64,000 bases of DNA from an uncultured bacterium (GTDB lineage: Bacteria; Fidelibacterota; Marinisomatia; Marinisomatales; TCS56), in the NCBI GenBank assembly GCA_964539785.1, contig CAZIJQ010000002.1, forward strand, positions 21,926 to 85,925, read 5' to 3'. This document shows positions 4,416-48,269 of the stretch, piece by piece. A program made the translations under genes and the position numbers. Under the pieces are notes generated by a model that was not told the DNA's origin, did not search any database, and worked only from the letters and a program-made list of their open reading frames with translations. The first letter of the stretch is position 1. Each line of letters opens with the position of its first letter.

Positions 4416-5431
4416 GATTTTTCCTCCAGACGATGATAAGCATCAATTGTTTCCAGAATTCGTTTGGAGTAACCCCAACCATTGTCGAACCAACTAATGG
4501 TTTTTACCAGCTTATTATTAATGACCATGGTTGCTATGCTGTCATGGATGAGGGTTTCACTAATACCAATTACATCGCTTGATACGATGGGGTCTTCGGT
4601 GTATCCAACAATACCGGCCAATTCACCTTCTGACACAGCCTTCATCACTTTGTTCAATTCAGCTGCTGTTGGAATATTTTCCAGCTCTGCCGTCAAATCG
4701 ATGCAGGAACCATCCATAACCGGCACATTGAAAGCTATGCCATCGAGTTTGTTTTTGAACTGGGGCATGATCTGTTCCACAATTCCAGGTGCCCAGGTTT
4801 GATTTGGAATAATATTTTCAACTGCCGAACGACTGCGACGAAGATCGGATCGCGCAGAATCGGCCAATGGTTGATCAGAAGTATAAGCGTGGACGGTAGT
4901 CATCATAGCCCGCTTTAAACCAAAGTTTTCATCAAGTATTTTCGACATCAGAGTCAAAACATGTACAGTCGATGATGTGGAACTTATTATTCGATCTTCG
5001 AACGCAATGTCTTGCTCATTGGCACCAATCACGACAATTCGATCGACTTCATCCACTGGGGGAACCGTCACGATAACACGTTTTGCACCGGCGTCGACAT
5101 ATTTTTGCAATTCTTCTTTTTTGCGAAATTTCCCCGTAGCGTCGATTACTATATCCACATCAAATAAATCCCAGGGAATACTGCCGGGTTGCCCGCCATC
5201 GAATATGCGGGATTTCTGGTCCCCCAGAATTAAATGGTTTTCTTCCAATACGGCATTCTCTGTCATTGGTCCGTGAACGGAATCACGCATTAGAAGATAA
5301 TGTAAAGATTCGGGCTGACCAATATCACTGATGGCTACAAACTGATAATTGGGATTATTATAACCTATCCGATACAGATTACGGCCAATGCGACCAAAAC
5401 CAACCAGTCCGATTTTTACTGGTTTACTCAT
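4412..5431 (-). CDS. GAPDH-like paralog lacking the catalytic cysteine
   Basis: 339 aa with VGFGRIGR, TVHAYTSDQ and WFDNGWGYS conserved. The active-site segment reads SSTSSTVHVLTL where gap has SNASCTTNCLAP. Its stop overlaps the gap start (ATGA at 4412-4415). Confidence 0.75.
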   Translation of the reverse strand: MSKPVKIGLVGFGRIGRNLYRIGYNNPNYQFVAISDIGQPESLHYLLMRDSVHGPMTENAVLEENHLILGDQKSRIFDGGQPGSIPWDLFDVDIVIDATGKFRKKEELQKYVDAGAKRVIVTVPPVDEVDRIVVIGANEQDIAFEDRIISSTSSTVHVLTLMSKILDENFGLKRAMMTTVHAYTSDQPLADSARSDLRRSRSAVENIIPNQTWAPGIVEQIMPQFKNKLDGIAFNVPVMDGSCIDLTAELENIPTAAELNKVMKAVSEGELAGIVGYTEDPIVSSDVIGISETLIHDSIATMVINNKLVKTISWFDNGWGYSKRILETIDAYHRLEEKS

Positions 5432-5534: not shown

Positions 5535-5562
5535 GTAGAGACGCGACATGTCGCGTCTCTAC
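5535..5562. repeat. 28-nt perfect palindrome/hairpin GTAGAGACGCGAC-AT-GTCGCGTCTCTAC
   Basis: Read directly. The arms are perfectly complementary. It lies in the htpG-to-GAPDH-like intergenic region. Confidence 0.9.
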
Positions 5563-5576
5563 CGGCAAAATTTGAC

Positions 5577-5606
5577 GTAGGGACAACTCTTGAGAGTTGT
5601 CCCTAC
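5577..5606. repeat. 30-nt perfect hairpin GTAGGGACAACTC-TTGA-GAGTTGTCCCTAC
   Basis: Read directly: 13-bp perfect stem and 4-nt loop. It shares the GTAGRGAC...GTCYCTAC clamp with the hairpin 14 nt to its left. Confidence 0.9.
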
Positions 5607-5663
5607 AAAACAAATAACAATAAATTAATGACCGCCTGTTGAAAAACTGGATTCTGACAGAAT

Positions 5664-36979: not shown

Positions 36980-37459
36980 TTATTTTTTATACTTTATCAA
37001 TATACTATGCCAGCGCTCGAGATCTCTGGTTGATGAATTAACCGCATCAATAAGTTTCCGTACATGAAATGGTTTTAAAAAATAATTATCAAATCCAACA
37101 GCTCGGGCTTTCCGCAAATCAAACAATTCACCGTAACCGGTTATAGCATAAATATAGGCCACCGGGTTACTGTCTTTAATAATTTTACATAATTCTATTC
37201 CAGACATACCTGGCAATTTCAAATCCAGAAAAAACATATAAATTTTTTGGTGCTTTAATATATTAAGGGCTTCATCGGCGGTTCCTGCCACATGCACTTT
37301 ATAGCCTTCATTAACAAAAGCTGTTCTTAAGATTTCCTGTATTGCCAAATCGTCATCTACAACCAGGATGGATTTTAATGAGTCTTGAAAAATCATATTT
37401 AAATTTATTGAATTATTAATTAACCAAAGCGAATTTAGGTTATGTAGGTCAAAATTCAA
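36980..37459 (-). CDS. Stand-alone response-regulator receiver domain protein
   Basis: ILVVDDDLAIQEIL...FLDLKLPGMSG...AITGYG...KPF is the CheY-like receiver pattern. The true start may be the internal Met at about 37396. Confidence 0.7.
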   Translation of the reverse strand: MNFDLHNLNSLWLINNSINLNMIFQDSLKSILVVDDDLAIQEILRTAFVNEGYKVHVAGTADEALNILKHQKIYMFFLDLKLPGMSGIELCKIIKDSNPVAYIYAITGYGELFDLRKARAVGFDNYFLKPFHVRKLIDAVNSSTRDLERWHSILIKYKK

Positions 37460-37545
37460 TTATTATTTCTAGAATTAATACCGAATAATTGTAATCTACT
37501 AATCAAACGACATCATCCACAGATACAGCCAATAGGATATTAGGT

Positions 37546-37580
37546 AACCTTCCAGGACTTAAAAAAAGACCTGGAAGGTT
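37546..37580 (-). terminator. Stem-loop downstream of the PrpD-family gene (possible operon terminator)
   Basis: AACCTTCCAGG / CCTGGAAGGTT, an 11-bp perfect stem with an A/T-rich 13-nt loop, 15 nt after the stop at 37595. There is no strong minus-strand U-tract, so the call is tentative. Confidence 0.4.
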
Positions 37581-37594
37581 TTCATCGAATTAAA

Positions 37595-39034
37595 TCAAAT
37601 CGTAACTACCATCTGACCCATGAAGTCGCGGGCGCTCATGGTTTCGCAATTGAAGATTGTATCTTTCAACTGACTCAGCTCTTCTTCATTGAAAAGACCA
37701 GCCGCCAGAGAATTGAACTTATTCTCCAAATCTGCCATGGTCATGGGTTCACGGGGATCGCCCTTGGGATATTCCAGGTATTCGGAATAATCCTTACCAT
37801 CATTAGTGGTAACAACAACCCTGGAAGGTTGCTTGGCCGGGAACATCTTTTCAAATTCCTGCGAGGGCTCACCCACAATTTTATCAATCACTTCAAAAAT
37901 TCTGGGATCATTCAATTTTTCATCTGAAAATGAGTCAGTCGTAATTTTCTTATCCACCATGGCCGCTGCCAGGCAATAGGGCAGCGAATGATCAGCCGTT
38001 TCCCTTGATTCAGGACGGTACTTGGTCGGATCGAATAAAATATCGTAAGCCTGGGCAAAACAAGTTACCTTAACTTCCTTAATATCCGTGTATTCCAGGT
38101 TATTATTGATCATGGCTTTGAGCAAACAGGATATATGCGTATGGGTTAGCGCTTCCGTTGGAAAAGCTTTCATGCCACATTCCAGAATTTTGAAATCCTT
38201 GCCCAGGTTACCAACCAATGCATCCACATCCCAACTCCAGGATGAGATACCATCACGGCCTTCCATATCGGTTGGTTTGATCAATTCTTCTTTGGCATCC
38301 CAACCGATGAAGGCATCCATGAAACCTTCTTTCCCTTCGAAGACTTTCTCAGTACCGGAATAGCCTTTCTGGGCCATTAGTGCGGCGAATACGCCCGACT
38401 GAACTGCCATGGGATCGACGGTGTTTTTCATCATCGTGAGTTTACCAGCAGTGGGACAGCCAATTGTATGGTTATGGCAACCGGAAATACCGATGGCATT
38501 CACCATCTCATCAACGGTCAGACCAAGAATTTTACCGGCCACGATCGGTGACACGAACTGGGTCAGGGTGCCGTGATGCCATTTCCGTTCGCGCACACCG
38601 GGTTTGGCAAATAGACACATACGCTGTTCGAATTCATAAGCCAGTACAATCGCCACGATCACATCCTTCATGGAGGCGTTAACTTTTTCCGCCATCGTTA
38701 GCGCTGCTGGGATAATATCACTGGGATGACTCGGGTCATCTTTCCAATAGATGTCGTTGAAATCCAGAGCTCGGATCATCAAGGAATTCACCAGAGTGGC
38801 ATTGACGGCTGGAATTTCATCGCCAAAACCGATGACAGTAGCCTCTTCCCTGCCACCCATTTCCTCATAAATTTCATGGATGGTGTTCACATCCAAGGTA
38901 TGCATACTACCGAAAGCGCAACCAAATGAATCATACAGGTAACGTTTGACCTCCGTAATTACTTCCGGAGGTAGATCTTCGTATTTTAAGTCAACGGCAA
39001 ATTCAGCTATCTGCCGGGATATGGATTTACTCAT
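37595..39034 (-). CDS. MmgE/PrpD family protein (2-methylcitrate dehydratase family)
   Basis: 479 aa. The N-terminal IAEFAVDLKYEDLPPEVITEVKRYLYDSFGCAFG is the typical PrpD-family opening, and the rest is colinear with the family. Confidence 0.8.
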   Translation of the reverse strand: MSKSISRQIAEFAVDLKYEDLPPEVITEVKRYLYDSFGCAFGSMHTLDVNTIHEIYEEMGGREEATVIGFGDEIPAVNATLVNSLMIRALDFNDIYWKDDPSHPSDIIPAALTMAEKVNASMKDVIVAIVLAYEFEQRMCLFAKPGVRERKWHHGTLTQFVSPIVAGKILGLTVDEMVNAIGISGCHNHTIGCPTAGKLTMMKNTVDPMAVQSGVFAALMAQKGYSGTEKVFEGKEGFMDAFIGWDAKEELIKPTDMEGRDGISSWSWDVDALVGNLGKDFKILECGMKAFPTEALTHTHISCLLKAMINNNLEYTDIKEVKVTCFAQAYDILFDPTKYRPESRETADHSLPYCLAAAMVDKKITTDSFSDEKLNDPRIFEVIDKIVGEPSQEFEKMFPAKQPSRVVVTTNDGKDYSEYLEYPKGDPREPMTMADLENKFNSLAAGLFNEEELSQLKDTIFNCETMSARDFMGQMVVTI

Positions 39035-39051
39035 AACAATTCCTATTAGTT

Positions 39052-39150
39052 AACCACAGATTACACAGATTTTCACTGATTTTATTGCTTAATCTTTGAA
39101 TTAGAACATTCTTTAAATAATGTTCTGTGTAATCAGTGCAATCTGTGGTT
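39052..39150. repeat. Iteron-armed inverted-repeat element E1 (99 bp, non-coding)
   Basis: Left arm AAC-CACAGATTA-CACAGATTTT-CACTGATT (39052-39081). Right arm CTGTG-TAATCAGTG-CAATCTGTG-GTT (39125-39150). An inner stem AGAACATT/AATGTTCT is also present. Confidence 0.9.
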
Positions 39151-39158
39151 TCAATTTC

Positions 39159-40355
39159 TTAAAGTTTGGCGATGATTGCGTCAGCCATTTCAATGGTAGA
39201 AGCGGCACCTTTTTCTATCACATCGGAACGACCAACCATTTTAGCCATATCATAAGTCCTGACTTTGCCTTCTGCCACAATTTCAGCAACTGCTTTCCTG
39301 ATCTTCGTAGCAATTTCCTGTTCATCGATGAAATCAAGCATCATGCAGGCCGATTCGATCATGGCAATCGGATTGACGATTGAGACGGGATAATCGGCAT
39401 ATTTAGGAGCGCTGCCGTGGGTAGGCTCGAAAACGCCAATACCAGTTTCGGGATTATACTGGGCGCTGCAGGCAAAACCAAGCCCACCAATCAGTCCCGC
39501 AAAGCCATCGGATACAATATCACCGAACATATTACCGGCCACGATTACGCCATAATTTTCCGGATTCTTGGTTAGCCACATCATCTGGGCGTCGATATTG
39601 GTATTCCAGACTTCGATCTCAGGGAAATCGGATTTCTGAATCTGCTGGGCCATCTTGTACATCATACCTGATGTTTCGCGAATAACATTCGGTTTTTCGC
39701 AAACGGTCACTGATTTGTAACCATTTTTTTTAGCGTGTTCAAAGGCTGCCCGCAGAATTCTTTCAGTAGCTTTCTTAGTAAATATTCTGGTTGAAACGGA
39801 GAGTTCCTCGACCGGAGTGTCACCGAAATTCTTCATAAATTTGGGATGGGTCATGAGGGCATCGTGAACCTGTGCCGGCGGATTACTCCATTCGACGCCA
39901 CCATAAAGTCCTTCGGTATTCTGCCGAAAAATGGCGACATCCACTTCCGGTTCCTCGACCGTGTCCTCGGGACCTCTTCGGATAAAGTTCAGCGGATTGC
40001 CTTTATAAGTCCGGCAGGGGCGCAGGCAGATATCCAGACCAAAATGCTGGCGCAGGCCAACGATCGGACTTGAATACACTAGTTCCTGTTCCTTCAATTC
40101 TGGTCCTAACTCTTCGAATGCTTCGTCTTTGGGTTTAGAGGTGATTGCACCAAAAAGGCCAATCTTATGTTCCGCAATCAAATCCAAGGTTCGCTGAGGT
40201 AAGGGATTACCTTCATTGCACCAGAATTCCCAGCCGATATCGCCTTCTACATAATTTGCTTCAAACCCGGCGGCTTCCAACACACGGATGGTCTCTTCCA
40301 ACACAACCTTGCCAATGCCATCTCCGGGTAGAGCTACAATTGTTCGTTTAGCCAT
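39159..40355 (-). CDS. Isocitrate/isopropylmalate dehydrogenase family protein (probable isocitrate dehydrogenase)
   Basis: 398 aa with LPGDGIGKVV, NTEGLYGG and NMFGDIVSDGFAGLIGGLG (the family signature). Substrate specificity cannot be decided by eye. Confidence 0.75.
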   Translation of the reverse strand: MAKRTIVALPGDGIGKVVLEETIRVLEAAGFEANYVEGDIGWEFWCNEGNPLPQRTLDLIAEHKIGLFGAITSKPKDEAFEELGPELKEQELVYSSPIVGLRQHFGLDICLRPCRTYKGNPLNFIRRGPEDTVEEPEVDVAIFRQNTEGLYGGVEWSNPPAQVHDALMTHPKFMKNFGDTPVEELSVSTRIFTKKATERILRAAFEHAKKNGYKSVTVCEKPNVIRETSGMMYKMAQQIQKSDFPEIEVWNTNIDAQMMWLTKNPENYGVIVAGNMFGDIVSDGFAGLIGGLGFACSAQYNPETGIGVFEPTHGSAPKYADYPVSIVNPIAMIESACMMLDFIDEQEIATKIRKAVAEIVAEGKVRTYDMAKMVGRSDVIEKGAASTIEMADAIIAKL

Positions 40356-40371
40356 TTCAATTTCCTTATTT

Positions 40372-40500
40372 AACCACTAATTACACAAATTTCACTGATT
40401 TGTTTTGCGTATTTATTGGTTTGTTTACTTTATTCAATTTTTTTCTATGTAATCTGCCTGCCCAACGTAGTTGCAACGCAGTTGGGTGAATTCAGTGGTT
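40372..40500. repeat. Iteron-armed inverted-repeat element E2a (129 bp) with a 30-nt hairpin nested in its right arm
   Basis: Left arm AAC-CACTAATTA-CACAAATTT-CACTGATT (40372-40400). The right arm CTATGTAATCTG...TGAATTCAGTGGTT is interrupted at 40457-40486 by CCTGCCCAACGTAGTTGCAACGCAGTTGGG. Confidence 0.85.
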
Positions 40501-40524
40501 TTCTTTTTCTTAATCAATCTATTT

Positions 40525-40621
40525 AACCACTAATTACACAAATTTCACTGATTTATTTTGCGCATTTATTGATTTGTCTATTTTATTCAAATTTTCTGTG
40601 TAATCCGTGAAATCAGTGGTT
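40525..40621. repeat. Iteron-armed inverted-repeat element E2b (97 bp), direct tandem copy of E2a
   Basis: The left arm is identical to E2a (40525-40553). Right arm CTGTG-TAATCCGTG-AAATCAGTG-GTT (40596-40621). The spacer is nearly identical to E2a. Confidence 0.9.
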
Positions 40622-42591
40622 TACTTAATCTTTTCTTTCACCCAGTTTTCCAATCCTTCCGTCAAGATCAATTCCTGGGCGGCTGCACCGACCGCACCAA
40701 TCGAATAGGTTTTTCCACCACAAGTAAGTTGGACTGATTGAAAATCAATTTCGATTTTGAGATCGGTTCGCACTGTCAATTTTTTGGTGCCGTATTTCAC
40801 TTTCAGATCTTCTAACAATTCCGGTGCTTCCATTACTAGATAGCCATTATTGATGGCGTTGCGTTTGTAGGTCTGGCTGAATGATCCGGCCAGGACCAGT
40901 TGAATCCCCCGGTATTTCAAGGCCGTGGCGGCCTGTTCCCGGGAACTGCCAGCACCAAAATTAAAGCCACCGACTAGAATATCACCGCTCCGCGCTATTT
41001 TACCAAATTCAGTATCGTAATTTTCCATGACAACTTCAGCCTGTTGCTCGGGCGTGAAATCATCGATGTAGGTATACTTGCCGGGATAGATACCATCGGT
41101 ATTAAGATTATCCAAATGACAGAAAATCACCGTACCCGATAACTTAGCCGGGAAGCCATCCAGCAGATTGGCAATGACCGCTTCTCGCTTAGAAACCGGC
41201 GCAACCGTAATACTGGTATTTACTGCTGTTTCGTTAAATGGGACAGGTCCAGCTATTTTGCCAGCCAGGGCGCTGGCAGCAACCACCGCTGGCGATGCCA
41301 GATAAGCTTCCGCTTCCTTTGAACCCATTCGACCTTTGAAATTGCGATTAGTGGCGGATATACCAACTTCACCATCCTGCAGCAATCCGACACCCAAGCC
41401 AATGCAGGGACCGCAGCCCGGTGGAATTGCGATGGCTCCAGCTTCTAAAAGAGTCTGCCAGTCACCGCGCCGCACGCTTTCTTCCTGTACTTCCCGGGAG
41501 GCAGCTGCGATATAAAATTCCACTCCTTCAGCAACTTTTTTTCCCTTTACAACAGCGGCAGCCTCCGCCAGATCATCCACGCGACTGTTCACACAGGATA
41601 CCAGATAAGCCTTGTGGATTTTCAGATTACGCTTTTCCATATCCGTCACGGAGGTCATTGTTTTAACATTGTGAGGACCAGAAACATGCGGACTGACAGA
41701 AGACAAATCAATTGTCAATTCTTTGGCGTAATAAGCATCCGAATCGGCTGCGGGAATGTTGGCTTCCAGTGCAGCGATACGAGCTTGACTCAAACGGGGA
41801 TGAGTACCGTTGCCATCGATATCGGAAGGCACGCCTTCCAGCCCGCGTTTTTCAATTGTCGCTGACCGATCATAAAGCCATTTAATCGTGATTTCATCAA
41901 TGGGAAACAATCCAACTAAGGCACCCCATTCGGTAGTCATGTTGGCAATTGCCAGACGCTCATCAATTTTGAGACTTGCTACACCTGCGCCAGCAAATTC
42001 GATGGCATGATTCAATACTTCATCATGATTAAAAATACCACAAAGGGTGATGATTAAATCTTTGCCGGTAACACCAGCCGGTAGCTTGCCAATCAGTTTT
42101 ACCTTCGCCACCGGCGGCACCTGCCACCAGGTACGACCCGTGGCCCAGATTGCAGCCGCATCGGTTCGTACGATCGGGGTACCAAGACAGCCCAAGCCAC
42201 CGTACATATTGGCATGGCTGTCGGAGGCTACGGCCATTGTACCGGGAAAAGCATAGCCTTCCTCCAACATCAACTGATGACCGATACCACGACCAGCGGG
42301 ATAAAAATCGACACCCATTTCTTTGGCGAACGCTTCGATCCCGGCATATTTTTTAAGGTTAGCTTTACTTTTATCCTGAACATTATGATCCAGGGCAAAC
42401 ATGGGTTGACGAGGATCGGATATCTTGCTGGCGCCAATCGCCCGAAACTTATTCATCACCGCACCTGTATTATCATGGGTTAGAATATGGGCGGGCTGGA
42501 TTGAAAGGTAATCCCCGGCATGTACTTGAGTACCTTCAGCTAAATCGACGGCGTATTTTTGGGCAAGTTTTTCTACTAAGTTCTGTTTCAT
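40621..42591 (-). CDS. Aconitase-family hydro-lyase, fused large+small (swivel) domains (aconitate hydratase/homoaconitase type)
   Basis: 656 aa. ASDSHANMYGGLG, VSCVNSR and PGCGPCIG (Fe-S Cys ligands) are followed by the swivel-domain motif GFNFGAGSSREQAA. Length and fusion resemble the short Aquifex-type aconitases. Confidence 0.8.
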   Translation of the reverse strand: MKQNLVEKLAQKYAVDLAEGTQVHAGDYLSIQPAHILTHDNTGAVMNKFRAIGASKISDPRQPMFALDHNVQDKSKANLKKYAGIEAFAKEMGVDFYPAGRGIGHQLMLEEGYAFPGTMAVASDSHANMYGGLGCLGTPIVRTDAAAIWATGRTWWQVPPVAKVKLIGKLPAGVTGKDLIITLCGIFNHDEVLNHAIEFAGAGVASLKIDERLAIANMTTEWGALVGLFPIDEITIKWLYDRSATIEKRGLEGVPSDIDGNGTHPRLSQARIAALEANIPAADSDAYYAKELTIDLSSVSPHVSGPHNVKTMTSVTDMEKRNLKIHKAYLVSCVNSRVDDLAEAAAVVKGKKVAEGVEFYIAAASREVQEESVRRGDWQTLLEAGAIAIPPGCGPCIGLGVGLLQDGEVGISATNRNFKGRMGSKEAEAYLASPAVVAASALAGKIAGPVPFNETAVNTSITVAPVSKREAVIANLLDGFPAKLSGTVIFCHLDNLNTDGIYPGKYTYIDDFTPEQQAEVVMENYDTEFGKIARSGDILVGGFNFGAGSSREQAATALKYRGIQLVLAGSFSQTYKRNAINNGYLVMEAPELLEDLKVKYGTKKLTVRTDLKIEIDFQSVQLTCGGKTYSIGAVGAAAQELILTEGLENWVKEKIK

Positions 42592-42598
42592 TTGTTTT

Positions 42599-43027
42599 AT
42601 CCACTGATTACACAGATTTCACAGATTATTTTATTATTCGTTCATATTCCAGGGATTCACTGCCAAAATTCATCAGCAACCCCAGCCTTAATTTTGTTAC
42701 TTTCAAATAGTTCAATATTTGGGCACGTTCGATATCCCCAATTTGTTTAATTGCCTTCAGTTCAATAATTACTTTGTCGTCAATTACTAAGTCACAATAA
42801 TATTCCTTTATGTCAACACCTTTGTAATTCACGTAATATTTCTGCTGCTGCTCAAAAGGAATATTCAGCCTTTTCAATTCCACTATAAATGCTTCTTCAT
42901 ACACAGATTCAAGAAAACCCGGCCCCAGTTCTTTATGAACCTCCATCGCAGCACCAATTATACGATAGGTAAGATCCTTATATAAGTATTTCATTTTTAA
43001 TCTGAGTAATCAGTGAAATCTGTGGTT
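42599..43027. mobile_element. Iteron-armed inverted-repeat element E3 (429 bp) carrying a GxxExxY gene
   Basis: Left arm ATC-CACTGATTA-CACAGATTT-CACAGATT (42599-42627). Right arm CTGAG-TAATCAGTG-AAATCTGTG-GTT (43002-43027). The arms enclose only ORF 42626-42994. Confidence 0.7.
42626..42994 (-). CDS. GxxExxY protein (PD-(D/E)XK nuclease-like family)
   Basis: 122 aa. HKELGPGFLESVYEEA contains the family-defining G-x2-E-x2-Y. The pattern CDLVIDDKVIIELK is PD-(D/E)XK-like. Confidence 0.85.
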   Translation of the reverse strand: MKYLYKDLTYRIIGAAMEVHKELGPGFLESVYEEAFIVELKRLNIPFEQQQKYYVNYKGVDIKEYYCDLVIDDKVIIELKAIKQIGDIERAQILNYLKVTKLRLGLLMNFGSESLEYERIIK

Positions 43028-43029
43028 AC

Positions 43030-43563
43030 TCAAGCTTTGAATGGTTCGAATGACACGAAGTCGGCATGATGCACGATGATTGATTCCACCGTCCGGTAAC
43101 CCAGATCGCCTTCTTTAGAGTGAGTACCGATAATGTGCTGGACTTCTGCCGGGAGGTCGAAGCGGGCAGCGATTCCCACACCGCTAAACGGGTGACGTAC
43201 GATTTTACCGGCATTGCTGGTGGCGAGTTTTCCGTCAACCATTTCATATTCCAGCAACTTGCCAATATCAATCAGGATGGCCCCGGAAATGAGCAAATCC
43301 ATATCGATCTTGATTTCATCGCCAAAATTCTCCTGCATGCGCTTGGCGATATCAACAGCCAGCTGAACACAGGTTCGCTTATGATTCATAAATGAAACCT
43401 GGCAATCCTTAATCAGCAGTGAAAAAGGAATCACTTCCAGGTCTTCCGGTGTCAGGACACTATTTTCGATGGCGAAGATCCAGGCTTCCAGTGTTTTTTC
43501 ACGCAGTTCATCATCTTTGATCCAATTGATCTCCGGCCAAATTCCTAAAACTTTTTCTCTCAT
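43030..43563 (-). CDS. HD-superfamily-like protein with partly substituted metal ligands
   Basis: 177 aa. ILIDIGK sits where HD proteins have LLHDIGK, and GTHSKEGD / HHADF lie C-terminally. Fold assignment is tentative. Confidence 0.4.
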   Translation of the reverse strand: MREKVLGIWPEINWIKDDELREKTLEAWIFAIENSVLTPEDLEVIPFSLLIKDCQVSFMNHKRTCVQLAVDIAKRMQENFGDEIKIDMDLLISGAILIDIGKLLEYEMVDGKLATSNAGKIVRHPFSGVGIAARFDLPAEVQHIIGTHSKEGDLGYRTVESIIVHHADFVSFEPFKA

Positions 43564-43579
43564 TTTTAATCCTTTATTT

Positions 43580-43738
43580 AACCACTAATTACACAGATTT
43601 CACAGATTAATGCGAAACTAATCGAAATAATGGTACAGCTAATTTTATTCAATTTTTTCCACTGATTACTCTAAAGCAAATCTTTAAGGTTACTATATTC
43701 ATAATGTTTTTTCTGTGTAATCAGTGAAATCTGTGGTT
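43580..43738. repeat. Iteron-armed inverted-repeat element E4 (159 bp, non-coding)
   Basis: Left arm AAC-CACTAATTA-CACAGATTT-CACAGATT (43580-43608). Right arm CTGTG-TAATCAGTG-AAATCTGTG-GTT (43713-43738). An extra internal CCACTGATTAC lies near 43669. Confidence 0.9.
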
Positions 43739-45297
43739 TACTCTTTGATTCCGTAAATTGAGTCGATCACCGTGCCGTCCACCCACTTGACGATCCCGAT
43801 CACTTCATCGGTTAGCTGCGGTTTAGCTGGTGGTCCACCTATCAGTTCATCGATTTCGGCCTTTAGTTCCTGAATAGTCTTGATGGGTAGATCGCTGCCA
43901 CTGACCGCTTCCAATAAATCTTTACGTTGTGGATTGATGGCGATCCCCCGCTCGGTTACAATCACATCGATCAACTCACCGGGTCCAACGATTGTAGTTA
44001 CCTCATCTACAATTACCGGAATCCGGTCGCGGAAAGCTGGGATGGGCAGGATCGTGCATTTACTGAACAGACAGTTTTGCCAGCCACCGATCCCATGGAG
44101 CATTTTACCATCGGAATGAGTTACCACGTTGGCATTAAAATTCACATCCACTTCGGTGGCGCCCAGCACAACCGCATCCAACATTGAAGCGAAATTGCCT
44201 TTTCCATGCCAGTTGTAACTGGTAAATGGCGACGTGTTCACATGACCATAATTTTCGCGCATGGAGCGAACACCTTCCAGATCGAAAGTTTGACCATCGA
44301 GAATGAAATCGGTGAGACCTTCTTCCAGCATTTCCACCAGATATTTGGTGGACCCACCACGAATGAAGCGGGCTTTGATATCGGCTTCCTTCATCATTTC
44401 TTTTAAATAGATCGCAAAAGCCAGCGATGTCCCGCCGGCACCAGCCTGGAAGCTGAATCCGTCCTGCATAATCCCGGCGTCGCGGACGAACCGAGCAGTC
44501 AGTTCGGCAATGTACAACCTGTCCGGTGATTTGGTGAGCTGGGTCGTACCACTGACAATTTTTTCCGGATCGCCAACTTTATCCAAAACCACTACATAAT
44601 CCACATTTTGGCCCTGAATCTGCCAGGGCACGCAAGGGAACGGAACCAGGTTGTCGGTGACCACAATAACTTTATCAGCGTGGATTGAATCCACCAAACC
44701 AAATCCCAGCAAACCACAGGCCGAGGGACCCCGGTCACCGGTGGCATTACCGAAGGCGTCAGCCGTTGGAGCGGCAATTACCGCAATATCAATTTGGACT
44801 TCCCCATCCTGCACCGCTTGCCAGCGTCCGCCGTGGCTGCGCAGTATGGCAGTACCGTTCATTTTTCCCCGGGAAGCATAATCGCCCAATGGACCATTCA
44901 GGGAACCTTCGACCCAATTGATAACCCCATTTTTCATATGGTCAATGACCGGCTTATGACAGGGGAAAGCTGCCGAAGGAAACCAGCGCAGCCCTTTCAC
45001 TCCTTCATCGGCAGCAATATCGAATACCTGATTCATAACCAGGTCACCATTGCGGAAATGGTGGTGTGAGGATATCGTCATGCCATCTTTCAATCCGCAT
45101 TTATCCAAAGCTTCTTTCAACGACGGAATGGTTTTATTTCCATCGGCAGGATAATCGCTACAGGTACGAATCGGCAGGGCCGGCTTTTTCCCGGTTGATC
45201 GAAACTTTCCTACACCTTGAAAAGGTACTTGAGCAACGCCATTAACTTCCGTCGGAACCAACCGACCGGCTGCATTTTTAATCATTTCATTTTTCAT
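43738..45297 (-). CDS. citF: Citrate lyase alpha subunit (citrate CoA-transferase)
   Basis: 519 aa, colinear with CitF. The N-terminal opening AAGRLVPTEVNG, SSHHHFRNGD, and the length all fit the family. Confidence 0.8.
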   Translation of the reverse strand: MKNEMIKNAAGRLVPTEVNGVAQVPFQGVGKFRSTGKKPALPIRTCSDYPADGNKTIPSLKEALDKCGLKDGMTISSHHHFRNGDLVMNQVFDIAADEGVKGLRWFPSAAFPCHKPVIDHMKNGVINWVEGSLNGPLGDYASRGKMNGTAILRSHGGRWQAVQDGEVQIDIAVIAAPTADAFGNATGDRGPSACGLLGFGLVDSIHADKVIVVTDNLVPFPCVPWQIQGQNVDYVVVLDKVGDPEKIVSGTTQLTKSPDRLYIAELTARFVRDAGIMQDGFSFQAGAGGTSLAFAIYLKEMMKEADIKARFIRGGSTKYLVEMLEEGLTDFILDGQTFDLEGVRSMRENYGHVNTSPFTSYNWHGKGNFASMLDAVVLGATEVDVNFNANVVTHSDGKMLHGIGGWQNCLFSKCTILPIPAFRDRIPVIVDEVTTIVGPGELIDVIVTERGIAINPQRKDLLEAVSGSDLPIKTIQELKAEIDELIGGPPAKPQLTDEVIGIVKWVDGTVIDSIYGIKE

Positions 45298-45304
45298 TAA
45301 TTTT

Positions 45305-45560
45305 TACCACAGATTACACAGATTTCACTGATTGGTTTTATGATTTATTTGTTGGCTTAATAATTATGCTATTATTGTAGAAAGAGTCACAATTCATCTT
45401 AGTTTACTCTATCATCTACTTTTTCTGCAATTTTACCCACTTTTTCAATTAATTGCTTTTTTAATGACATACTACTACTCAGCAGATATTATTTAAATCT
45501 CTATTTAAGATTTTTCTTTATAGCTTTTTAAAATTTGTGCAATCCGTGTAATCTGTGGTT
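45305..45560. repeat. Iteron-armed inverted-repeat element E5 (256 bp, non-coding)
   Basis: Left arm TAC-CACAGATTA-CACAGATTT-CACTGATT (45305-45333). Right arm TGTG-CAATCCGTG-TAATCTGTG-GTT (45536-45560). The spacer is AT-rich and about 200 bp long. Confidence 0.85.
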
Positions 45561-46770
45561 AAACTTTTTCTTTCCAGTTTTTGGATAACAGATTTGAGGC
45601 AATTGCCAGAGTTATTGTCTGCTGCGCACGTTTCACCACCGGTGGATCAATCATTTTGTTACCAAGCGCCACTACCCCCAGACCCTGTTCCCGGGCTTTA
45701 TCGAAAGCTAACTCGATCTTTTTGGCCTTATCAATCTCAATGACAGTTGGCGCAAACGCTTCGTGTAGCGGTTTGATCTGCCGCGGGTGAATGCAACCTT
45801 TACCATCGAACCCCAAAGCTTTAGCTTCTAACACCGATGCCCGTAATCCTTCTTCATTGCCTACATCACTATAGACCGTATCAATTGCCTGAAGACCTAC
45901 TGCACGAGCGGCATTTACCAGCATTCCCCGGGCAAAAAATGATTCTATCCCCTCATCGGTCCGCGGCACACCAAGATCGGCAGTATAATCTTCAAGGCCA
46001 ATGGCCAGCGCCACATTATTTGGCGATGCTTCGGCGATTTCCAACGCCTTTAAAATCCCCCGGCCGCTTTCCAGGATTGGCATCAGATAGACCGGTTCAG
46101 TCCGACCGCAGGCTTTACTGATTTCGGCAATCTTTTTATCGATGACAATAATTTGATCAGCCGATTCGACTTTAGGTACGAGTATTAGATGCACATTATG
46201 AGGTACAATAAATTCCAGATCGGTCAGGCCCATTTCACCCTGATTGATCCGTACAATTCGTTCAGCACCGAAAAAGTCCAGTGATCGTAGGGTATTACGC
46301 ACGAGATAGCGGGTTGCTTCTTTTTCATTTGGACCAACCGAGTCTTCCAGGTCCAGAATCAATCCATCGGGTTTGTGGATACCAGCATTCAAAGCCAATT
46401 TGGGCTGATTACCAGGCAGGTATAGCCGGCTGCGGCGGAATCTGTCCCGTGTAGAGGAATATCTACAGAATTCTTTCATTTCCGGTAACACTTCAACTGG
46501 TATATCTGGATAAGCTTTTTTTATGGCGGCCTCGATCCGGGCCATCATTACAAACGGAACGGCGCCAAAATCTTCAATTTCTAATATTCCGGTTTTGATA
46601 CCCAATTGGGTGCAAACCGACTGGGTTAGTTCATCGATGCTTTTGCCGAAAAGACCACCGACTTTACTTTGAATTTTAATGGTTAGTGGTGTAGTCTGGG
46701 GGGTATAAATAACACGAACGTCTGAACGCGGTTTAACCCCCTTGGGTCCTACGGTATATACTGGTGCCAT
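45559..46770 (-). CDS. Fused citrate lyase acyl-carrier (gamma, CitD) and citryl-CoA lyase (beta, CitE) protein
   Basis: 403 aa. The N-terminal ~95 aa align with CitD (PRSDVRVIY matches ESGDVMIRI, including the prosthetic-group Ser; FGAVPFVMMARIEAA matches KGALDCILRARLEAL). The rest is CitE/HpcH-like (RRSRLYLPGN...DGLILDLEDSV). Confidence 0.75.
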   Translation of the reverse strand: MAPVYTVGPKGVKPRSDVRVIYTPQTTPLTIKIQSKVGGLFGKSIDELTQSVCTQLGIKTGILEIEDFGAVPFVMMARIEAAIKKAYPDIPVEVLPEMKEFCRYSSTRDRFRRSRLYLPGNQPKLALNAGIHKPDGLILDLEDSVGPNEKEATRYLVRNTLRSLDFFGAERIVRINQGEMGLTDLEFIVPHNVHLILVPKVESADQIIVIDKKIAEISKACGRTEPVYLMPILESGRGILKALEIAEASPNNVALAIGLEDYTADLGVPRTDEGIESFFARGMLVNAARAVGLQAIDTVYSDVGNEEGLRASVLEAKALGFDGKGCIHPRQIKPLHEAFAPTVIEIDKAKKIELAFDKAREQGLGVVALGNKMIDPPVVKRAQQTITLAIASNLLSKNWKEKV

Positions 46771-46988
46771 AGTTGTCCTTAATCGTTGATCAAAATAACC
46801 ATGAGACTGGTCGTAATTGAAATTAGTCCGCCCCTTAAATGCCGAGCAATAAAAACCGGATAGAACTTATTAAAATTCTCGCTGATTTAGCTGATAACCA
46901 CTACCCTGAATCAATAATACCAGATTAGGCAATTATCATGCGAATTGATGATTTAAGCTGCCCTACAAATCAGAAAATATTAGCACAG

Positions 46989-47016
46989 GACCTGATCCTA
47001 ATAATTTGATCAGGTC
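46989..47016 (-). terminator. Stem-loop after the NifX-like gene (possible terminator)
   Basis: GACCTGATC / GATCAGGTC, a 9-bp perfect stem with a 10-nt loop, 19 nt downstream of the stop at 47035. The U-tract is weak. Confidence 0.4.
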
Positions 47017-47034
47017 ATTCCTTATAACCGGTAA

Positions 47035-47382
47035 CTACTGATTAATAAACTCTGTCAATTGGTTTTCCTGGAAGGCTTCGAAAGCCTGCTTCACAGTCAT
47101 TTCACCGGCTCCAATGAATATCTTGAGGCCAAATTTGCTCAACACATCGGCAGCATTTCCACCGGGTCCGTTACCGGTGATCAATACATCGGCTTTTAAT
47201 TCGAACAATTTCCGGGCGCTTTGCGGTCCTGCGCCGTGAGCCTGTTCGCTTATCAGTCGATTATCAAAATGAGTAAATTCATCGTTGGTATCATTATATA
47301 TCAAAATATACTCCGCTCTTCCAAAACGCGGATCGATATTAGAATCCCACTCTTTTCCTTTGGCAGTGAAAGCAATATTCAT
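47035..47382 (-). CDS. NifB/NifX-family (dinitrogenase FeMo-cofactor-binding-like) small protein
   Basis: 115 aa. IDPRFGRAEYILIY...GAGPQSARKLFELKADVLITGNGPG is typical of the NifX/NifB C-terminal domain family. Confidence 0.7.
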   Translation of the reverse strand: MNIAFTAKGKEWDSNIDPRFGRAEYILIYNDTNDEFTHFDNRLISEQAHGAGPQSARKLFELKADVLITGNGPGGNAADVLSKFGLKIFIGAGEMTVKQAFEAFQENQLTEFINQ

Positions 47383-48269
47383 CCTTTTTTTCCTCTTATA
47401 GTTATTTGTTTAATTGTTTCCCAGCAAGCGCCAATGATTGAACCCATGGTCTCTGGGCTGTATTCGACAATTGTCTGACCATTGATCATTGCAGTAGTAA
47501 AAACATCATCATAAGGCAAATCAACAATGTGCGTAATTCCCTCTTCTATCAAATAATTTTTAATCTCAGCAGTAAGCTGCCCGTTTAAATCGGCTTTGTT
47601 GATTATGCAGCCAGTCAATAGACCAAATTTTTTTACCAGTTGATTGACCCTTTTCAAATCATGAAGCCCCGATACAGTCGGTTCGGTAACTAGAATTACA
47701 AAATGAGCTCCTGAAAGCGAGGACACTACCGGGCAGCCCACTCCGGGTGATCCATCCACTAAAACAAATTGCAGTCCATTTTCTTCGGCGAGCTGTCGGG
47801 CTTCATTTTTCACTTTAGTTACTAGTTTACCGGAATTTTCAGCACCAATACCCAGTCTGGCATGGACCATGGTACCACCGGTTTTGGTAGTTGATATATA
47901 CCATTCACCAACATTGTTCTCAGACATCCTGATAGCAGCGGTCGGGCAAACATGAGCACAATAACCACAACCTTCACAGCTTAACTGATCTATTGTAAAG
48001 CAGTCGTTTTGAAATTTAACAGCATCAAAGCGGCAGACCTCTTCACAACGGCCGCATTGGTTGCACAGGCTTTGATCAATTTCAGCCAGTTCACCACTGT
48101 AAAAATCTTCGCTTTGATGAAAGTTCGGTTGCAGCAGCAGATGTAAATCAGCCGCATCCACATCACAATCGGCGGTAACTATATCCTGACCTCCCAGATA
48201 AGCGAAAGCGCCAGTGAGGGATGTTTTCCCCGTACCACCTTTACCGGAAATTATAACAATCTCTTTCAT
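47379..48269 (-). CDS. MinD/ParA-type P-loop ATPase with inserted 2x[4Fe-4S] ferredoxin motifs
   Basis: 296 aa with Walker A SGKGGTGKTS and the motifs CNQCGRCEEVC and CEGCGYCAHVCP. There are 4-nt overlaps with both neighbours. Confidence 0.8.
   Translation of the reverse strand: MKEIVIISGKGGTGKTSLTGAFAYLGGQDIVTADCDVDAADLHLLLQPNFHQSEDFYSGELAEIDQSLCNQCGRCEEVCRFDAVKFQNDCFTIDQLSCEGCGYCAHVCPTAAIRMSENNVGEWYISTTKTGGTMVHARLGIGAENSGKLVTKVKNEARQLAEENGLQFVLVDGSPGVGCPVVSSLSGAHFVILVTEPTVSGLHDLKRVNQLVKKFGLLTGCIINKADLNGQLTAEIKNYLIEEGITHIVDLPYDDVFTTAMINGQTIVEYSPETMGSIIGACWETIKQITIRGKKG

Follow-up and report, generated by a model that had tools for sequence, protein, structure and literature searches.

Iteron-armed GxxExxY genes and gene-less hairpins at operon junctions of an uncultured Marinimicrobia bacterium and its relatives

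The four-helix-bundle family PF05635 (23S_rRNA_IVP, S23p) was first met inside 23S rRNA, in its intervening sequences (IVSs). In Coxiella the IVS measures 428-444 nt, the inverted repeats at its ends make up a 28-bp stem that is cleaved by RNase III, and it holds a single S23p open reading frame (ORF) (PMC4990558). In bacteria of the Candidate Phyla Radiation the family is also found in insertions of 16S and 23S rRNA (PMC11270868). Here we describe an element of comparable size and layout in a stretch of 64,000 nucleotides from an uncultured bacterium (Fidelibacterota, also Marinimicrobia; GenBank assembly GCA_964539785.1, contig CAZIJQ010000002.1, positions 21,926 to 85,925 of the forward strand), which is called the window throughout. 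The element, at positions 42599-43027 of the window, consists of one gene for a 122-aa protein of the GxxExxY family enclosed by two inverted arrays of short direct repeats (iterons), here called arms. The GxxExxY family is listed as of unknown function, with multiple horizontal transfers (PMC3424549).

The element resembles the 23S rRNA IVSs of Coxiella and Leptospira in several respects. Both are about 430 nt long and contain one small ORF between inverted repeats of about 28 nt at the two ends, both have ORF-bearing and ORF-less forms, and both show a sporadic distribution suggestive of horizontal transfer. The arms of 27-30 nt pair in the predicted RNA fold, giving a stem comparable to that of ~28 bp in the IVSs, and genes of the IVS family PF05635 occupy the identical operon junctions in relatives of the window. 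However, the IVSs are placed inside a helix of 23S rRNA (helix 9, 25 or 45), whereas this element is situated between protein-coding genes. The gene that it carries encodes a PD-(D/E)XK nuclease (PF13366) and not an S23p four-helix bundle, and its arms are arrays of a 9-mer conserved across phyla, in which no RNA-stem signature was found.

We propose, with a probability of roughly 55%, that the GxxExxY elements are very small selfish single-gene cassettes with decaying miniature derivatives, in which the nuclease recognises the arms and the cassettes are copied into new junctions. To our knowledge, from searches outside subscription journals, neither GxxExxY genes as cargo of iteron-armed cassettes nor S23p/IVP cassettes at operon junctions have been described. 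Literature searches on IVSs and S23p returned rRNA reports only, and full-text searches on GxxExxY and PDDEXK_3 returned little, the family being mentioned in passing or as of unknown function.

The GxxExxY gene and its arms in the window

The element consists of the following parts.

42626..42994, minus strand: GxxExxY / PDDEXK_3 gene, 122 aa; motif residues G26, E29 and Y32; nuclease residues D68 and E78-x-K80
42599..42628: arm 3' of the gene; ATC followed by three units, CACTGATTA CACAGATTT CACAGATTA; the first unit including ATC is ATCCACTGATTA
42998..43027: arm 5' of the gene; TAATCTGAG TAATCAGTG AAATCTGTG followed by GTT; inverted copy of the other arm, innermost unit degenerate

The gene matches the GxxExxY profile TIGR04256 with an E-value of 1.9e-44 (150.8 bits, cut-off 35) and the PDDEXK_3 profile PF13366 with an E-value of 6.5e-41 (139.8 bits, cut-off 22). 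A preliminary description of this DNA had presented it as the sole cargo of the element, and rightly so, since the ORF spans the whole interior, from 3 nt past one arm to a stop codon within the other. That stop codon, TAA in the minus-strand reading, occupies 42626-42628 within the last unit of the left arm, as had been described. The distance of 8 nt that had been given between the start codon and the right arm is approximate only: 3 nt separate the ATG (42994-42992) from the innermost unit, which is degenerate, and 12 nt separate it from the closest exact one.

The 9-mer CACWGATTW has 22 copies in the window where 2.5 would be expected, a count reached in none of the shuffles, and a 22-mer taken from the arm has 9 matches against 0 expected. 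A repeat search of the window paired the arms of this gene-bearing copy (hereafter E3) as inverted repeats, and likewise the arms of the other elements. In the predicted minimum-free-energy RNA fold the two arms of E3 are paired with each other, the gene lying between them.

In an alignment of 24 homologues the residues G26, E29, Y32, D68 and K80 are invariant, while 90% or more of the sequences share E78 and Q92. The AlphaFold2 model of the protein (predicted local distance difference test, pLDDT, 94.5) presents a minimal PD-(D/E)XK core with the order alpha-beta-beta-beta-alpha-beta. Its Foldseek neighbours include Cas4 SSO0001, lambda exonuclease, MGME1, tRNA-splicing endonucleases, I-Bth0305I (weak) and Hjc, all of them distant, with query-normalised template-modelling (TM) scores of about 0.4-0.6. 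A sequence search of the PDB with the window protein found no relative. PADLOC and PHROGs gave a marginal Cas4b match (E 0.0077) and nothing else, hence GxxExxY does not belong to the defence and phage families so far recognised.

The family is very large, an exhaustive profile search having collected 35,653 clusters (50% identity) at E<=1e-3. Many of the top matches, such as P0361, P0363, P0366 and P0369, are single chains of 250-295 aa that contain two GxxExxY domains, and these single-chain versions suggest that the working unit is a dimer. In P0363 and P0369 the second domain is devoid of the motif glutamate and of ExK. To judge from these residues, each of the two is a pseudo-dimer with a single active site, perhaps a nicking enzyme.

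Arms of GxxExxY genes in other genomes

The preliminary description viewed the window element as a possible hairpin-bounded gene cassette, and inverted iteron arms that enclose the gene prove to be the normal setting of GxxExxY genes. We sampled 80 such genes from metagenome contigs, 44-64% identical to the window protein, and searched their surroundings for arms with a detector of tandem CRCNRA cores 7-11 nt apart, which on shuffled copies of the window gives 0-2 two-unit matches and no three-unit matches. An arm was found within 200 nt of the gene in 73 of the 80 loci, and the exact arm-gene-arm layout in 41. A flank inverted-repeat test that is independent of this detector gave the same picture: for 58 of the 77 genes with sufficient flank, the inverted repeats of their own flanks scored above the 99th percentile of shuffles (median score 38; shuffled flanks gave 15, and flanks of other loci gave 16). 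Arm density is about 4 per kb near the gene, 0.44 per kb farther off and about 0.02 per kb in shuffles. Iteron flanks being the usual context of the family, the objection foreseen in the preliminary description, that other paralogues might lack them, does not overturn the association. Five of the 80 genes are flanked on each side by a complete hairpin, having an R arm upstream and an F arm downstream.

The sequence of the unit varies from locus to locus (CACAGATT, CGCAGATT, CACGGATT, CACGAATT, CACGAATG, CGCGGATG, CACAGAGG, CGCCAAGA and others), and both arms of a given gene agree in it. Divergence of the arm unit is correlated with divergence of the GxxExxY protein (Mantel r 0.40, p<0.0005). 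Moreover, gene-less arms differ by 1.3 mismatches per 8-mer from the arms of the gene at the same locus, against 2.2 from the arms of other loci. A cultured case is provided by Bacteroides finegoldii, where the GxxExxY gene lies between radA and the gene of a FAD-dependent protein, with arms CACAGAGGA.

The placement of these cassettes follows clear rules. They are maximally compact, the downstream arm often including the stop codon of the GxxExxY gene. In 51 of 60 cases the GxxExxY gene shares its strand with the upstream neighbour, and where both neighbours were called, 22 settings are co-directional against 5 opposed and 14 convergent against 3 divergent. The first arm core follows the upstream stop codon at a median of 11 nt (4 nt or less in 9 of 30), and the next in-frame ATG follows the last arm core at a median of 25 nt.

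Some loci depart from this scheme. In L207, a plasmid of Fusobacteria bacterium ZRK30, a segment of about 50 nt with reverse-type units flanks the GxxExxY gene as direct, not inverted, copies (2390-2990). In L163 (531-1484) a TumE toxin gene and a partner ORF, placed between iteron hairpins, directly precede GxxExxY on its upstream side, and a DUF4160/DUF2442 pair is found in the same position in L173 (510-1494). Small modules of toxin-antitoxin (TA) type and GxxExxY cassettes appear to cluster together. We considered whether such genes are extra cargo between arm pairs and rejected this, as in the viral and metagenome loci they are mostly ordinary genes between separate hairpins, those of L173 and L163 included.

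The IVS comparison raises the question whether the arms work as RNA or as DNA. If selection acted on an RNA stem of the transcribed strand, an excess of G·U-type over A·C-type mismatches would be expected; among 56 gene-oriented arm pairs the sense strand has 47 of each. In 90 CACNGATTN arm pairs, the two variable positions of the unit are complementary between arms at the level of chance (80% observed where 78% is expected, and 41% where 38% is expected). The bases outside the outermost unit of these 90 pairs match end to end at positions -1 to -5 in 89%, 77%, 64%, 49% and 50%. The mismatch and covariation tests indicate that the arms act as arrays of recognised units with matched termini, following the logic of transposon ends, and not as a stem maintained by pairing. 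On these sequence comparisons we favour arms that are sequence-specific inverted repeats over a selected RNA stem. An imperfect stem may still form in RNA or in single-stranded DNA, and be processed in the RNA, since the predicted stems are stable.

These results bear directly on the explanation by an RNA element of the IVS type, in which RNase III would cut the arm stem, free the cargo mRNA and separate the host cistrons, the function of GxxExxY would be unrelated and spread would be left to ordinary recombination. We consider this unlikely. It has on its side the size and layout shared with the Coxiella IVS, the IVP genes in equivalent slots of the relatives, the strong co-orientation with the upstream gene and the stable stems predicted for two gene-less copies (z -7.5 and -4.5), along with the paired E3 arms. 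Nevertheless, besides the even G·U to A·C ratio and the absence of covariation, a stem alone fails to explain either a 9-mer found across phyla or the direct-repeat build of the arms. In addition, Rfam gave no match in 37000-47500 of the window at E<=1, and no rRNA or other family at gathering thresholds in the 80 GxxExxY loci; hence no copy is seen to interrupt an rRNA gene, a possibility that the preliminary description had raised. Its suggestion that the arm stem is an RNase III substrate gains nothing here, given that the arms bear no RNA-stem signature.

The arms themselves are spread far beyond the window. For the exact 21-nt pattern CACWGATTWCACWGATTWCAC the species-representative genomes have at least 120 loci, against a calculated chance expectation of about 4 for 596 Gb on both strands. 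Among the matches listed, the hosts are Cloacimonadota, Planctomycetota, Bacteroidota, Chloroflexota, Acidobacteriota, Verrucomicrobiota, Gemmatimonadota, Ignavibacteriota and Spirochaetota, together with Asticcacaulis isolates, a Desulfosporosinus metagenome-assembled genome (MAG) and archaeal MAGs. These listed loci are mostly short gene-less hairpins, and their roughly 41 nearest forward/reverse arm pairs enclose loops of 5-618 nt, mostly below 150 nt. A GxxExxY gene lies within just two of these pairs, in L089 and, as a frameshifted copy, in L065. On a Gemmatimonadales contig (L038, 4200-6950) reverse arms CACAGATTA alternate with forward arms CGCAGATTA in tandem, the period being about 270 bp, so the repeated module combines two unit variants.

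The arm pattern is also present in 33 stretches of IMG/VR, several of which are rich in arms; neither a GxxExxY nor an IVP gene was found in their 339 kb. This bears on, but does not decide, the second objection foreseen in the preliminary description, that iteron elements might abound in genomes devoid of GxxExxY. In one putative viral contig of 29.7 kb (IMGVR_UViG_3300037264_001851; L257 and L260) about 20 iteron arms stand among genes of ordinary appearance, and GxxExxY is absent. It may be that gene-less hairpins are carried and spread by phages. Viral contigs were rejected as the origin of the cargo genes, IMG/VR having yielded only 5 GxxExxY and 2 IVP loci.

Operon junctions in the window and in related operons

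In the window, E3 is one of six elements that fill all five internal junctions of a citrate-lyase/aconitase operon on the minus strand. The operon and the other elements are listed below.

37595..46770, minus strand: host operon for PrpD, isocitrate dehydrogenase (IDH), aconitase, HDIG protein, CitF and CitE-ACP, with an element at every internal junction
39052..39150: E1, gene-less iteron hairpin at the IDH/PrpD junction; RNA fold -35.3 kcal/mol, z -7.5
40372..40500: E2a, gene-less, at the aconitase/IDH junction; one arm degenerate, broken by a GC-rich mini-hairpin
40525..40621: E2b, gene-less iteron hairpin directly 3' of the aconitase stop codon; RNA fold z -4.5
43580..43738: E4, gene-less, at the CitF/HDIG-protein junction; in relatives this slot holds a 23S_rRNA_IVP or GxxExxY gene
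45306..45560: E5, gene-less, at the CitE-ACP/CitF junction; conserved 23-codon ORF inside; in relatives this slot holds a GxxExxY or IVP gene

The five gene-less elements carry the same arm type as E3. None was seen at the remaining ~36 junctions of the window, and the chance of such clustering was calculated as about 1 in 750,000. The operon is an apparent insertion hotspot; in the relatives it has repeatedly been struck by GxxExxY, IVP and other small elements. Its base composition is unremarkable, which gives no sign of a recent island.

The interior of E5 (45334-45531, minus strand) contains the 23-codon ORF MSLKKQLIEKVGKIAEKVDDRVN, and the orthologous element in the related operon L202 (3456-3643) retains MSTKNQLIEKVVKITGKVN. 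From this conservation the ORF could be a micro-peptide or the leftover of a lost cargo gene; it matches neither the GxxExxY nor the IVP profile. Compared by eye, the outer ends of the elements (39050-39058, 40523-40531, 43578-43586 and 45553-45561), which read TTAACCACA / TGTGGTTAA, agree at 8 of 9 positions with the DnaA-box consensus TTATCCACA, and the internal units agree with a relaxed form of it at 7 of 9. This likeness to DnaA boxes, and a similar one to parS, was rejected on account of the mismatches and of the 9-bp spacing, which is unlike that of known DnaA arrays.

Seven related Marinimicrobia operons were compared slot by slot (1, CitE/CitF; 2, CitF/HDIG; 3, HDIG/aconitase; 4, aconitase/IDH; 5, IDH/PrpD). 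In L201 and L202, the two compared directly with the window, the host proteins are 84-99% identical to those of the window. L202 has the same layout, with GxxExxY in slot 3. In L201 slot 1 is taken by a GxxExxY gene (80.5% identical) and slot 2 by a four-helix-bundle gene of PF05635, and decayed hairpins lie in slots 3 and 4. GxxExxY occupies slot 2 in L229 and L230, and slot 3 in L121, where it is only 64% identical. A PF05635 gene is found in slot 1 of L215-217 and in slot 2 of L218-220. Slot 2 of L226 is bare (20 nt), and in L227 the junctions of slots 1-4 are bare, with 46, 5, 8 and 29 nt. These differences in occupancy show that cassettes repeatedly entered, moved or got replaced in this Marinimicrobia lineage.

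Slot 3 of L226 holds a 146-nt iteron hairpin that encodes DKLAYKELSYKIIGSTIKFKRNQV; in a search of 144 translated frames this matched the GxxExxY profile at positions 3-26 with an E-value of 2.5e-4. Since it retains the N-terminus of GxxExxY, at least one short hairpin is an internal-deletion derivative. The five gene-less elements of the window, which the preliminary description had taken for possible miniature derivatives, showed no remnant of a GxxExxY or IVP gene.

Such a derivative, and the presence/absence differences among relatives, are reminiscent of miniature inverted-repeat transposable elements (MITEs) and their parent insertion sequences (ISs), with which the elements also share terminal inverted repeats, multiple dispersed copies and many short gene-less copies for each gene-bearing one. 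Unlike MITE parents, the window element has no recognised transposase (DDE, HUH or serine) and only a 122-aa nuclease of a family that is not a known transposase. Moreover, insertion is confined to gene junctions, with an orientation bias, and no target-site duplication could be defined, as filled and empty sites did not yield a clean alignable pair. The TAA or TTAA often seen at both ends in the Marinimicrobia lineage belongs to the inverted repeat itself (AAC/GTT, GATC/GATC in other lineages).

The same turnover argues against a benefit to the host, in which the hairpins would stabilise mRNA or tune the expression of a highly expressed operon and GxxExxY would have landed in one of them by accident. 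The filling of 5 of 5 operon junctions against 0 of ~36 others and the regular spacing to stop codons and ribosome-binding sites speak for this possibility. We regard it as very unlikely, because a close relative (L227) has the same operon with bare junctions of 5-46 nt, occupancy and cargo vary among relatives, the GxxExxY association is family-wide and the same arms occur in distant phyla in unrelated contexts.

The second cargo family strengthens the analogy with 23S rRNA IVSs that the preliminary description had drawn, as the equivalent junctions of the relatives hold PF05635 genes within inverted arms of their own and the Coxiella IVS matches the window element in size and layout. PF05635 genes were found at ordinary operon junctions in slots of this operon (L201, L215, L218), between narG and narH in Ignavibacteriales and in an ABC-transporter operon of Bacteroidales, and in 6 of 7 distinct loci they are bracketed by inverted repeats (scores 35-57). 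Their arm units, of the type AAGATT/AATATT (for example TTAAGAATTAAGATTGAAGATTT and TAAGATTTAATATTCAATAATTAA), are unlike the CRCNRA units of GxxExxY. This contrast holds within the single operon L201, so that the arm type tracks the type of cargo.

Two further kinds of content were noted at these junctions. In L228 two of them (4756-5000 and 5535-5655) hold another repeated element (..CATTTCGACCGAACGAG..GAGTGAGTGGAGAAAT..) that has no iteron arms, pointing to a second family of small elements drawn to the same slots. At the aconitase/IDH junction of L229 (7586-7951) a frameshifted ribbon-helix-helix-like ORF (ISIHLPDTLFIKLEVLSKTLKKSKSTLAKK...) lies between CACGAATT-type arms, with the IVP-type arm GAATTAAGATTGTAGATTGAA ahead of it; this may be a third cargo type or the result of nested insertions.

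Two unrelated cargo families with one layout at the same junctions could also mean that the arms are general sites of recombination or insertion, used by an enzyme whose gene lies elsewhere, as attC is by IntI and REP by RAYT, and that GxxExxY, IVP and other small genes are passengers. The ORF between similar arms in L229, the frequency of hairpins where no GxxExxY is nearby and the five genes that sit between two complete hairpins are in keeping with this, yet we judge it rather unlikely: the arm type follows the cargo (CRCNRA for GxxExxY, AAGATT/AATATT for IVP), even inside L201, the arms co-diverge with the GxxExxY protein, and Pfam assignments revealed no recombinase or transposase close to the elements, either in the window or in its relatives.

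The systems to which that explanation appeals are themselves only partly alike. Repetitive extragenic palindromic sequences (REPs), their paired form (REPINs) and the REP-associated tyrosine transposase (RAYT) share with our elements the short palindromic intergenic repeats that far outnumber a small gene flanked by the same repeats, and the GxxExxY genes between two complete hairpins recall a RAYT between REPs. However, RAYT is an HUH/Y1 enzyme of IS200 type, whereas GxxExxY is a PD-(D/E)XK protein usually found inside the hairpin, and REPs are lineage-specific, whereas arms of the window type are common to many phyla. The Y1 transposase family is absent from the Pfam assignments of the operons examined. 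Integron attC cassettes likewise are promoter-less small genes, co-oriented and read from upstream, with imperfect inverted repeats, and TA-like genes stand by the hairpins in two of our loci; unlike them, the GxxExxY gene has no integrase nearby and has arms on both sides in place of a single 3' attC. A GTTRRRY core was not seen by eye at the element ends, save for one chance-like match at E5. Membership in the integron attC, IS200/IS605 and REP/RAYT systems was therefore rejected, their defining enzymes and core motifs being absent.

A candidate mechanism and its implications

In the selfish-cassette explanation that we prefer, a cassette is made of two terminal inverted repeats, each of about three direct units of 8-10 bp (core CRCNRA; here CACWGATTW), enclosing one promoter-less gene for a PD-(D/E)XK (GxxExxY) nuclease of about 120 aa. 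It inserts between co-directional host genes, usually a few bases past the upstream stop codon and some 15-25 nt before the next start codon, and its gene is probably transcribed by read-through from the host operon, as the co-orientation bias suggests. A dimer of the nuclease may recognise the repeated units of both arms as DNA and cut at the element ends or close to them, by which the cassette, along with related gene-less copies, would be copied into new junctions. Loss of the gene over time leaves short gene-less hairpins, which outnumber the intact copies and would rely on nuclease supplied in trans. In the transcript the arms may pair with each other, so that the cargo is looped out of the operon mRNA in the manner of the 23S IVSs. 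This would make an insertion tolerable; it is not what would maintain the arm sequence.

Homing endonuclease genes, those of PD-(D/E)XK type such as I-Bth0305I and I-Ssp6803I included, provide a parallel for the part assigned to the nuclease: here too a symmetric site contains a small nuclease gene that spreads horizontally and decays to forms devoid of it. Our elements differ in that they have neither intron nor intein, that their arms are arrays of repeats, and that the gene-less forms have variable interiors and do not represent one uninterrupted target allele.

Several points weigh against this explanation. A nuclease of 122 aa cannot carry out strand transfer unaided, and host repair or a further enzyme would have to contribute. 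The IVP cassettes share the layout but have no nuclease, so the mobilising enzyme need not be the protein that the cassette encodes. The viral stretches rich in arms but devoid of GxxExxY call for caution, as do the 2 of about 41 arm pairs that enclose the gene and the want of gene remnants in the gene-less elements of the window. Co-divergence of arms and protein would also follow from plain co-inheritance.

A bolder reading, which we consider unlikely, is that GxxExxY proteins form a new class of minimal PD-(D/E)XK mobility nucleases of about 120 aa that recognise 9-bp iterons. The cassettes of roughly 430 bp would then rank with the smallest autonomous mobile elements of prokaryotes, and the 23S rRNA IVSs with S23p genes would be the branch resident in rRNA of a broad super-class of single-gene cassettes, bounded by inverted repeats, that colonise transcribed junctions in bacteria and archaea.

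The regular position of GxxExxY genes inside iteron-armed cassettes provides this large family with a candidate substrate, namely the arms of its own cassettes. It would also account for a class of intergenic hairpins met in Bacteroidota, Planctomycetota, Alphaproteobacteria (Asticcacaulis) and archaeal MAGs. The 23S rRNA IVSs and their S23p proteins are thereby linked to a wider phenomenon of ordinary operons, and the nature and spread of IVSs become accessible to study in culturable Bacteroides. In practice, the arms give rise to spurious small ORFs and to breaks in assemblies, and they mark operon junctions where insertions are tolerated.

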